64,000 bases of DNA from Candidatus Latescibacterota bacterium (GTDB taxonomy: Bacteria; Latescibacterota; UBA2968; GCA-2709665). The notes under the pieces are model-generated. The model was not told the origin of the DNA. It made no database searches and saw only the letters and a program-made list of their open reading frames with translations. This document shows positions 14,111 to 15,837 of this stretch, one piece after another. Made by a program: the position numbers and the translations under genes. Within the stretch, counting starts at the first letter, position 1; each line of letters begins with the position of its first letter. The DNA is taken from assembly GCA_965208835.1 (NCBI GenBank), contig OZ242358.1:1888001-1952000 (forward strand). Reading direction: 5' to 3'.

Positions 14111-15271
14111 TCAGTGTATCAGCCGTTCTTCCAGTGCGGGAAACGGGTGGGGAATAAGATGGGCGGACACCAGTTCGCCGTACCTCTCCGCTTCTGCGGC
14201 GCCGACGTTCAGGGCGGCGCGCACCGCGCCGACGTCTCCCCTGACAACGCTTGCAGTGAGAAAGTACCCGACCTTGTACCGGCCCTCGTATTCCACGTCT
14301 GCGGACTTCAGCATCTGATCCACGGCCTTGACCAGGGCCACGGTGCTGCGCGTTTCGATCAGCCCCATCGCCTGATTGCGGCTCGTGGCATTCCTGGACA
14401 GGCTCCCGCCAAAACAGGCCATGACTTCGGAAGATGGACGGGAAACGACACAGGATGCATTCAATTCCCCGGCTTCCCGCGCGCCATCGACGCCGGCTTC
14501 CACGGCAGCCTGGACGGCGTCAAGGGCGCCACTCACCAGCGCGTCGACCCGGCCTCCGCTGGCGATGACGAGGCGCACGAGGTCAACGTCGGCCGCCTTG
14601 ACCATCGCGTCGGACCCGCCGACAGCGCTCACATAGCCCGTTGTTTCAAGAATACCCAGCGCGCCGATGTCTGCCTGCGGAGCGTTCGATTTCGGCGTAT
14701 CGGGGAGCATTGGCGCGATGCCCGGCTCAGGGCTCGGAATCGCCAGGGTCGCGTAAACTTCCCCTACCTCATCCGCACACGCGATTCCGGCCTGCAGGGC
14801 AGCCTGGACCGATGAAATATCGCCCCGAACCACAAGATGAACCAGCGCACCGCCGACGGACGTCCAGCCTGCGACGTGGACGGGCGCGCTCTTGACCATG
14901 GCGTCGGCGCCACGGATGAGGGGTACCATGCCACGCGTTTCGAGGATGCCCATTGCCTGCGCGCCAACCGGTCTTGCCGTACCCGCGTCCGCCCTGTGCG
15001 GCATGGATTCGAGGGCGCCCGGGGCAGGCCCCGCGATGACGTCCGCGGTAATCAGGTCACCGTGGTTCCCGGCCTCGGACCGCCCGACCCGAAGGGCGGC
15101 CTCCACGTCCGAAACGGCGCCTTCGATCACAACGGTCAGCCAGCCGGAACCCACGCCGTGACGCCCCAGAACCCGGACGTCCACGGTCTTCAGCATGGCG
15201 TCGAGCGCCGCGACAAGCGCGGTCATGCCGCGGGTCTCCAGAATTCCCAGGGCATGGTTTCCTGCGGCCAC
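14111..15271 (-). CDS. Bacterial microcompartment shell protein with four tandem BMC domains, 386 aa
   Basis: Four repeats of A(L/M)G(I/L)(L/I)ET...D(A/Q)M(L/V)K...V, each about 85-90 aa, joined by 12-14 aa linkers. Confidence 0.92.
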   Translation of the reverse strand: MAAGNHALGILETRGMTALVAALDAMLKTVDVRVLGRHGVGSGWLTVVIEGAVSDVEAALRVGRSEAGNHGDLITADVIAGPAPGALESMPHRADAGTARPVGAQAMGILETRGMVPLIRGADAMVKSAPVHVAGWTSVGGALVHLVVRGDISSVQAALQAGIACADEVGEVYATLAIPSPEPGIAPMLPDTPKSNAPQADIGALGILETTGYVSAVGGSDAMVKAADVDLVRLVIASGGRVDALVSGALDAVQAAVEAGVDGAREAGELNASCVVSRPSSEVMACFGGSLSRNATSRNQAMGLIETRSTVALVKAVDQMLKSADVEYEGRYKVGYFLTASVVRGDVGAVRAALNVGAAEAERYGELVSAHLIPHPFPALEERLIH

Positions 15272-15279
15272 GGCGGCGC

Positions 15280-15837
15280 TCAGGGGCCGAATGCCCGCAG
15301 CACGTCGGGCAAGGGTTTGGGGATGAGGGCGGCGCCGAGGAAATTTTCTCCGGTCTCGACGCTCGCGCGACCCACGGACAGGGCCTCGGTCACGGAAGCG
15401 ACGTCGCCAAGAATAAGTGAGCAGACCACCCGGTTGTGTACAGTAAGTACGTTATAAACCTGGACGTCGGCCGCCTTCACCATTCTGTCATTGGCGGTGA
15501 CGTGAGCGCCGTAACCTCTTGTTTCGATCAGACCCAGGGCGCCGGACGGTGTCCGCCGCTCCGTAGCGATTGCATTCGAAACGTATTCCCGGCAGGCGGG
15601 TTCGGGGTGCGTCATCGGCGCCGCAACCACGCGGTCCACCACCTCTCTGGCCGCTCGTTCGCCGCTCTTGAGCGCCGTTTCAACCCTGCTGATGGATCCA
15701 CCGAGAAAAACGGTGGTGAATCCGCCGATGGACTCCCAGCCCAGGAGGTCCACGCCAGCGGCTTTACCGGCGGCGTCCGACGCGAGGATAATCCCGGCGA
15801 CGCCTTCGACTTCGATCATTCCGATCGCGGCTGACAT
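15280..15837 (-). CDS. BMC shell protein with two tandem BMC domains, 185 aa
   Basis: AIGMIEVEG...DAAGKAAGV and ALGLIETRG...DRMVKAADV. Confidence 0.92.
   Translation of the reverse strand: MSAAIGMIEVEGVAGIILASDAAGKAAGVDLLGWESIGGFTTVFLGGSISRVETALKSGERAAREVVDRVVAAPMTHPEPACREYVSNAIATERRTPSGALGLIETRGYGAHVTANDRMVKAADVQVYNVLTVHNRVVCSLILGDVASVTEALSVGRASVETGENFLGAALIPKPLPDVLRAFGP

Follow-up and report, generated by a model that had tools for sequence, protein, structure and literature searches.

A four-domain and a two-domain BMC shell protein of Latescibacterota probably share one asymmetric hexagonal tile

We analyzed a window of 64,000 nucleotides (nt) from Candidatus Latescibacterota bacterium (assembly GCA_965208835.1, contig OZ242358.1, positions 1,888,001 to 1,952,000) in which two adjacent genes encode shell proteins of a bacterial microcompartment (BMC). 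One of them, Q ('quad'), carries four BMC domains and its neighbour, T' ('duo'), carries two. BMC tiles are partitioned into six single-domain or three two-domain chains. To our knowledge, all characterized tiles are symmetric and their pores consist of six or three copies of one residue. We consider it likely that T' and Q are obligate partners in a 1:1 (4+2) pseudohexamer, which would have a single, asymmetric pore. Such a tile had been proposed in the initial annotation of this DNA, and the proposal gained support from the domain counts, the strict co-occurrence of both genes, a model of the complex and contigs that bridge the two genes. Genes and domains are located in the window as follows:

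14111..15271, reverse strand: Q, four-domain shell protein of 386 amino acids (aa); open reading frame (ORF) with GTG start, PF00936
~14996-15262, 14717-14962, 14423-14668 and 14114-14374, reverse strand: domains D1, D2, D3 and D4 of Q
15280..15837, reverse strand: T', two-domain shell protein of 185 aa; ORF with ATG start, PF00936
~15574-15837 and ~15283-15549, reverse strand: domains T1 and T2 of T'

T' is the upstream gene, and its TGA stop codon is followed by 8 nt and then by the GTG of Q. Comparison with Pfam PF00936 (cut-off 24.5) returned four stretches in Q (E = 1e-76, 253.4 bits) and two in T' (E = 8.4e-32, 109.4 bits). Because the best stretches span positions 1-75 of the 75 profile positions, the domains are non-permuted. 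In AlphaFold2 (AF2) models, every domain of Q and T' folds in the order strand-helix-strand-strand-helix-strand. The domain content is thus directly observed, and the four plus two non-permuted domains in adjacent genes with an 8-nt gap that were read from the letters alone are the same as those counted with Pfam. The earlier reading had also held that all six domains keep the edge lysine, that each has its own pore loop and that the arginine of the PRP edge motif is mostly lost. Indeed, a domain alignment returned identical motifs, with the edges DAMLK, DAMVK, DAMVK, DQMLK, DAAGK and DRMVK and the pore loops VGSG, VGGA, ASGG, VGYF, IGGF and VHNR. Arg-Pro stands at the PRP position in one of the six domains, D3 ('SRP'), the others reading AGP, PSP, PHP, THP and PKP. 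The closest NCBIfam models for Q and T' were CcmO, EutM and PduT, which either stayed under their cut-offs or matched in several stretches.

Assembly programs may go astray where similar domains are repeated in tandem, and tandem BMC genes that were collapsed or fused by misassembly, or an annotation artefact, might account for the four-domain ORF. The domains share just 23-38% identity, however, and both ORFs were bridged without internal indels by Logan contigs of sequencing runs from other studies. One X6 contig spans 14102-15947 with 37 substitutions and no gaps, and one X5 contig spans 13900-15562 with indels solely in the intergenic positions 14095-14102. We further collected 78 loci from species-representative genomes, whose ORFs were scanned with a hidden Markov model (HMM) of the six window domains. 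A complete four-domain ORF was found in 73 of them, in independent assemblies that include complete chromosomes. The incomplete cases are L074, which reaches a contig end, L070, which is split 3+1, and L075, L077 and L078, which start inside Q. None of the 73 complete genes is frameshifted or decayed. Misassembly, which the initial annotation had named as fatal to its proposal, is ruled out by the bridging contigs together with the 73 complete ORFs, and we give an artefact of any kind practically no credence.

The Q family is widespread and tightly linked to T'. A word-indexed protein search returned 302 clusters of Q homologues at E<=1e-5, with Gemmatimonadota and Latescibacterota as sources; the 120 clusters listed measure 366-424 aa and share 51-91% identity with Q over 92-100% of its length. 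The corresponding Atlas cluster has 457 members with a representative of 382 aa, and clustering of the family at 50% left a single full-length representative plus fragments. Wherever the contig includes the start of Q (75 loci), the ORF immediately upstream has two domains. Q and this ORF overlap in 49 of these loci (by 8 nt in 38) and are separated by 1-30 nt in 25 and by 175 nt in one. Among 168 species genomes of the phylum, the Q profile matched 83 (E<=1e-80) and the T' profile 84 (E<=1e-40). The latter comprise all 83 genomes with Q and one more, G095, whose assembly of 980 contigs is 85% complete and where the T' match ends at a contig edge (model position 162 of 192). None of the 168 genomes carries Q without T'. 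Co-occurrence across genomes had been suggested as a check on the proposed tile, and it is strict and far above chance. Q was found in 15 of 21 genomes of family f1, 65 of 76 of f4, two of 31 of f2 and none of the 39 genomes of the other eleven families. A single transcript would encode both T' and Q, with translation of the two probably coupled.

Each of the six domain positions forms an orthologous lineage of its own. In the tree that we built from 207 domains of 25 loci, D1, D2, D3, D4, T1 and T2 are each monophyletic (support 0.67-1.0), and so are the three domains of a neighbouring gene pair, uT and uH, which is described below. Identity is 23-38% between positions and 54-64% within a position. 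This divergence, together with an old orthologous lineage for each position, rules out recent duplication or concerted evolution of the domains. Among 35 homologues of each protein, no substitution occurs at the edge lysines of Q (K28, K127, K225 and K322) or of T' (K25 and K121). The pore loops are conserved as well, each differing from the other five. The conserved stretches comprise H38, G41, S42, G43 and W44 in D1, G135, W136, G140 and G141 in D2, G239, G240 and R241 in D3, G335, Y336, L338, T339 and A340 in D4, and G33, W34, S36, G38, G39 and T41 in T1; in T2, L131, V133, V137, V138 and C139 are invariant and H134 and R136 are present in at least 90% of the sequences. In the proposed tile, the central pore would be framed by six loops that all differ and are each conserved. 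The class consensus of D3 ('srP') and D1 ('prp') partially keeps the (P/A)RPH edge motif, which is lost in D2, D4, T1 and T2, whereas the neighbouring classes uT1, uT2 and uH retain IPRP(H).

The edge lysine of BMC domains serves contacts between tiles. As it is kept on all six edges, the tile should fit into a facet like an ordinary hexamer. One might instead suspect that T' and Q form no facet tile at all, being a non-shell scaffold, such as a nucleation platform or cap for an aldolase cargo, or a remnant of shell genes with a relaxed function. Such a role would fit with the disappearance of the (P/A)RPH motif from most domains, with the unusual N-terminal module of the adjoining enzyme and with the higher divergence of the T' and Q classes, which are 54-64% identical within a class vs 75-80% for the uT and uH classes. 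It is at odds with the invariance of all six edge lysines, with purifying selection that has acted over a long time in at least three families of the phylum and with the intact state of all 73 complete genes. We hold the chances of a scaffold or remnant to be slim.

We then turned to structure models of the single chains. From the 35-row alignment, AF2 predicted Q with a mean predicted local distance difference test (pLDDT) score of 89.5 and a predicted template modelling (pTM) score of 0.88, and confidence dropped solely at the three linkers (block means 65 and 57-66). T' alone reached a pLDDT of 93.9 and a pTM of 0.91. In Foldseek, two adjacent Q domains superimposed on the tandem BMC-H chain 6NER with template modelling (TM) scores of 0.88-0.92 (target-normalised), and T' did so with 0.84-0.87. 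6NER was also the best sequence match in the PDB (E = 3.7e-35), and no chain with more than two BMC domains was present among the 60 best sequence matches. In contrast, the natural BMC-T chains PduT (3N79/3PAC) and HO BMC-T1 (5DIH/6N06) gave TM scores of 0.40-0.46 and root mean square deviations of 15-17 Å to the models, which means that a single domain fits and the two-domain pair does not. Since the models match 6NER and not BMC-T, the rotational sense or angle of the domain link may differ from that of classical BMC-T proteins. If it does, these tandem chains would be independent BMC-H fusions.

The complex of T' and Q was modelled with ESMFold2, with both chains given as alignments, in three runs and with three controls. 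The interaction prediction score from aligned errors (ipSAE) was 0.71, 0.77 and 0.54 (median 0.71), and the best control reached 0.00. In a benchmark, the ipSAE mark was reached in 58 of 80 solved complexes and in two of 110 mismatched pairs. The runs agreed in at least 95% of contacts, with a partner pLDDT of at least 87. Beyond the score, the list of contacts is the informative part of the model. Confident contacts of Q to T' are confined to residues 8-92 (D1) and 308-365 (D4): D1 (8-12, 38-48, 74-92) contacts T2 (107-121, 126-138), and D4 (308-322, 328-339, 364-365) contacts T1 (7-9, 35-42, 71-87). When mapped onto the domain alignment, D1 uses the same face as T1 and D4 the same face as T2, and therefore both interfaces are of the same head-to-tail type. 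Modelling of the 1:1 complex had been named as a check, and the complex passed the controls with contacts from D4 to T1 and from T2 to D1 that are predicted to close the ring D1-D2-D3-D4-T1-T2. From the model and the genetics together we infer that T' and Q would assemble 1:1 into a single flat tile with this cyclic order and with no internal symmetry.

The same models bear on the idea that both proteins assemble separately and share just the shell, T' as a homotrimer and Q alone, with three Q chains making two tethered tiles or a network that staples tiles together. In length and number of domains T' equals a BMC-T protein, the twelve domains of three Q chains would give two hexagons and the D2-D3 linker (~20 residues, lower model confidence) is possibly flexible; the retained lysine edges are equally expected. 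Q was, however, predicted as one rigid body (pTM 0.88) and not as two halves, and the modelled T' touches just D1 and D4, filling the two-domain gap. A T' homotrimer needs an interface from T2 to T1, and these two are the most dissimilar of the nine domain classes (22.8% identity, hhalign score 51.7). In addition, overlapping genes, as seen in 49 of 75 loci, suggest an equal dosage, which separate assemblies do not require, and the repeating order of domain classes described in the following would be left unexplained. Separate assemblies thus appear unlikely to us.

Additional evidence on the 1:1 tile came from the gene pair uT (two domains, uT1 and uT2) and uH (one domain), which lies a few hundred bases upstream of T' in most loci (L018:4708-5543) and is lacking in the window and in the 13 loci closest to it. 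The domain pattern 2,1,2,4 on the plus strand was found in 48 of 78 loci, and longer patterns in nine more. By mean identity and hhalign score, uT1 (a) is the best match for T1 and D2, uT2 (b) for T2 and D3, and uH (c) for D1 and D4, so that T1, T2, D1, D2, D3 and D4 read a-b-c-a-b-c. The motifs of the classes concur: class a has 'GW' ahead of its pore loop, T2 and D3 have 'GY' behind the first strand, and class c has 'MLK'. The Q profile also aligned the uT and uH pair of seven genomes, across two stop codons, to its positions 86-381 (D2-D4). The domains of uT and uH are collinear with D2-D3-D4 and likewise with T1-T2-D1, which raises the question of a (2+1)x2 ring.

The predicted contacts from T2 to D1 (b to c) and from D4 to T1 (c to a) are paralogous to the covalent links from D3 to D4 and from D1 to D2. 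This argument for ring closure is therefore independent of the complex model. The order of the classes points to a simple history in which an (a-b)(c) gene pair may have been duplicated before c, a-b and c were fused into Q. A fusion of two T' copies is ruled out as the origin of Q by its best-match pattern, c-a-b-c and not a-b-a-b. In one relative (L070:3294-4431), a three-domain ORF stops at a TGA in the D3-D4 linker and an intact ORF of 86 aa for D4 begins 4 nt later at the conserved Met, giving a 2+3+1 arrangement. If this split is real, the covalent D3-D4 link would be dispensable, as expected within one ring.

We also considered that the ring of Q is completed by two BMC-H proteins (4+1+1) or by mixed partners, with T' as one interchangeable filler. 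The genome does encode two BMC-H proteins, most relatives hold an extra uT and uH pair beside T' and Q (48 of 78 loci and the nine with longer patterns), BMC domains have one interface geometry in common and L070 hints that a free D4 domain may be tolerated. Nevertheless, T' is absent from none of the 83 genomes with Q, and T1 and T2 form separate lineages that evolve slowly and keep invariant residues in the interface region, which would be unexpected for a dispensable filler. We rate such an exchangeable ring as very improbable.

Which compartment would a tile of T' and Q serve? The gene that follows Q encodes an aldolase-like enzyme, and the remaining features of the locus are:

12921..14093, reverse strand: class I aldolase-like enzyme of the DHDPS/NAL family, 390 aa, PF00701
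13935..14093, reverse strand: N-terminal module of the aldolase, ~50 aa, a candidate targeting or docking module by tblastn homology
15894..15922, reverse strand: promoter-like site TTGACT-17 nt-TATTAT from a consensus scan (10 of 12 matches)

The promoter-like site lies 57 nt 5' of the T' start codon; the scan gave four sites in the region vs a mean of 1.8 in shuffles and is no evidence of function. The aldolase gene starts 18 nt after Q. PF00701 covers residues 75-362 of the product (E = 8.9e-56, 189.2 bits), leaving an N-terminal extension of ~75 aa, and all NCBIfam equivalogs (NanA, DapA, KDG aldolase, KdgD and others) matched below their cut-offs. In 73 of 78 loci, Q is followed immediately by a homologue with 64-93% identity, which is missing in L015, L041, L058, L074 and L078, of which L074 ends at the contig edge. 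The N-terminal ~50 residues resemble the N-terminus of a 148-aa protein (L018:5548-5994; 42% identity over 48 aa, E = 1.3e-6, tblastn), and 60 of 78 loci have the gene for this Cys-rich protein between uH and T'. No Pfam family matched the module even at E<=10, and no second copy was found in the genome of the window. A terminal module common to two proteins of a locus is the typical look of encapsulation signals. The module is thus a possible encapsulation or docking module, which we take as a lead only.

Eight PF00936 hits were found in the genome of the window, six at this locus and two in BMC-H genes at 4.13 Mb. The latter belong to the main metabolosome locus (L079, G000:C1:4126000-4145000), 2.2 Mb from T' and Q, which encodes PduL, a 485-aa protein without a family, BMC-H, BMC-P, an acylating aldehyde dehydrogenase (AldDH), two further BMC-P proteins, a 244-aa protein without a family, acetate kinase, a Reg_prop protein and the second BMC-H. 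Profile matches identified AldDH (PRK15398, 632.5 bits, cut-off 403), PduL (PF06130, 1.4e-57) and acetate kinase (2.3e-111), and three BMC-P genes (PF03319) lie beside the BMC-H genes. The genome thus holds the core of an aldehyde-oxidising metabolosome, namely acylating AldDH, PduL, BMC-H and BMC-P, and no aldehyde-generating enzyme was found at L079. In most relatives, the block of T', Q and aldolase lies inside the main locus. The order in L018 is rhaM, an FAH-family hydrolase gene (opposite strand), AldDH, BMC-P, PduL, uT, uH, the 148-aa protein, T', Q, the aldolase, a DAO-family oxidoreductase and a second DHDPS-like gene. Homologues of AldDH, PduL and BMC-P were present within the fetched flanks of 55-57 of the 78 loci.

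DHDPS/NAL enzymes act through a Schiff-base lysine, and lactaldehyde would be the aldehyde product of the deoxyhexose route. In non-phosphorylative sugar routes, 2-keto-3-deoxy acid sugars yield pyruvate and glycolaldehyde, and deoxyhexoses are used in an analogous way (PMC6336799). The aldolase is a candidate signature enzyme that would release an aldehyde inside the shell: we infer from its neighbourhood that it may cleave a 2-keto-3-deoxy sugar acid to pyruvate and an aldehyde (lactaldehyde or glycolaldehyde). The T'Q tile would belong to the aldehyde-oxidising metabolosome (AldDH, PduL, acetate kinase, BMC-H and three BMC-P) and might act as a dedicated conduit, as a docking site for the aldolase encoded directly downstream, or as both.

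Upstream of the shell genes, the window contains an ORF for a multi-pass membrane protein of 806 aa that matches no Pfam family (16411-18831, reverse strand) and an ORF of up to 1820 aa (19214-24676, reverse strand). Their products are 82-98% identical among the 14 closest loci and occur in these loci only. Genes for a CehA/McbA-family metallohydrolase, PhyH, a zinc alcohol dehydrogenase (Zn-ADH) and DapF are common only to the 12-14 closest loci.

Several points speak against the 1:1 tile of T' and Q, or against parts of it. Five of the six window domains are without the Arg of the (P/A)RPH edge motif, and the tile may therefore pack unlike a basal hexamer. The pass of the complex model may reflect likeness to solved BMC hexamers and trimers and not specific binding. 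The clade of D1, D4 and uH in the 207-domain tree was lost in FastTree when 44 further domains were included, with the nine classes remaining mostly separate, and the deep branches of domains of 85 residues are weak. Because these branches are unstable, the a-b-c-a-b-c reading rests mainly on identity and hhalign scores and on the stable group of T2, D3 and uT2. The 2+3+1 split of L070 comes from a single metagenome bin and is possibly an assembly error. A clean six-domain fusion was not found among the longer proteins matching T' (three of 5669 candidates at E<=1e-10), which is weak evidence. Two of these three are four-domain proteins and the third, P0121 (411 aa), consists of T', out-of-frame text, D1 of Q and out-of-frame text again, which suggests that the two genes were read through with frameshift errors rather than truly fused. 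Finally, the substrate of the aldolase is assigned from its gene neighbourhood only.

How does the proposed tile relate to known shell proteins? In the CcmK3/CcmK4 heterohexamers of beta-carboxysomes, one tile is formed from different paralogues that are encoded by adjacent genes of a satellite locus and have been proposed to tune permeability. Their chains are single-domain with variable stoichiometry and position, whereas all six positions would be genetically fixed in the tile of T' and Q. The CcmK3/K4 satellite locus is mentioned in PMC8217296. BMC-T^s proteins (PduT, H. ochraceum BMC-T1 and the N-terminal part of CcmO) likewise consist of fused non-permuted PF00936 domains that make up a pseudohexagonal tile, and they equal T' in length and domain number. 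They are described as three-fold symmetric homotrimers of two-domain chains (PMC8217296, PMC8007038). The pair differs from them by the four-domain chain and by a predicted two-chain tile without symmetry. T' has the two PF00936 domains of a BMC-T^s protein and Q does not, and neither model shares the BMC-T^s chain geometry, with TM scores of 0.40-0.46 vs 0.84-0.92 to 6NER. The best likeness by sequence and fold is 6NER, a synthetic tandem BMC-H fusion from a designed H. ochraceum shell in which head-to-tail fused BMC-H domains sit side by side in one tile of a real shell. 6NER is man-made and assembles as a trimer with two domains of identical type per chain, while the natural pair has six diverged domains in two chains. 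We file T' and Q as metabolosome BMC shell proteins and not as BMC-T^s; our searches returned no account of such a chain architecture in BMCs.

At the level of loci, the genome of the window resembles the FRAG type, which is described with scattered shell genes, a BMC-P triplet and an occurrence in Gemmatimonadetes and candidate phyla (Sutter et al. 2021, PMC8217296). It has two loci 2.2 Mb apart and three PF03319 genes, and it has in common with FRAG-type loci an AldDH core without an obvious signature enzyme and the same phyla. The main text of that survey distinguishes six types of shell protein, with no mention of chains that exceed two PF00936 domains, and its supplementary tables may list these genes (PMC8217296). 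In their excerpted text, further sources describe only single, tandem and permuted BMC forms (PMC4207490, PMC9052549, PMC8007038). Chains with three or four BMC domains were not found in the literature, including the excerpted text of PMC3909097, PMC4454575 and 10.1101/2021.01.18.427120, with supplements outside the search. The literature and PDB searches thus concur with the initial annotation, whose author knew of no characterized 4+2 or linked-tile example.

Our representative library also contains BMC proteins with three domains and lengths of 283-330 aa (~290; P0133-P0160 and P0179). Pfam returned three PF00936 stretches in all eight that were tested, and the HMM of the window domains did so in 14 of 16. 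They form a separate family with 30-41% identity to Q over three domains, and no description of three-domain BMC proteins was found in print. Two such chains would result in six domains.

We wondered whether the obligate 4+2 tile is part of a hidden class of tiles. The duplication history of the a-b, c pair (yielding a-b and c-a-b-c) is sensible only if the ancestral tandem and single proteins shared one ring, (a-b + c)x2. It is therefore conceivable, although we regard this extension as doubtful, that uT with uH and the three-domain proteins also build low-symmetry mixed tiles alongside that of T' and Q. If so, each mixed tile would have one chemically unique pore and one unique face, which would let it serve as a dedicated conduit or dock one cargo enzyme at a single site, in this case the aldolase with its N-terminal module.

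Shell tiles govern entry to and exit from microcompartments. If the 4+2 tile of T' and Q exists, it would have one pore of six independently evolvable loops, six distinct edges and two faces without symmetry, and it would provide an engineering scaffold in which every position is separately addressable. It would represent a fourth partition of the hexagon beside 6x1 and 3x2, with the three-domain proteins maybe providing a fifth (2x3). The family is not rare, as 83 of the 168 species genomes from the phylum carry it, and its DHDPS-family aldolase could explain a group of metabolosomes without an assigned substrate.

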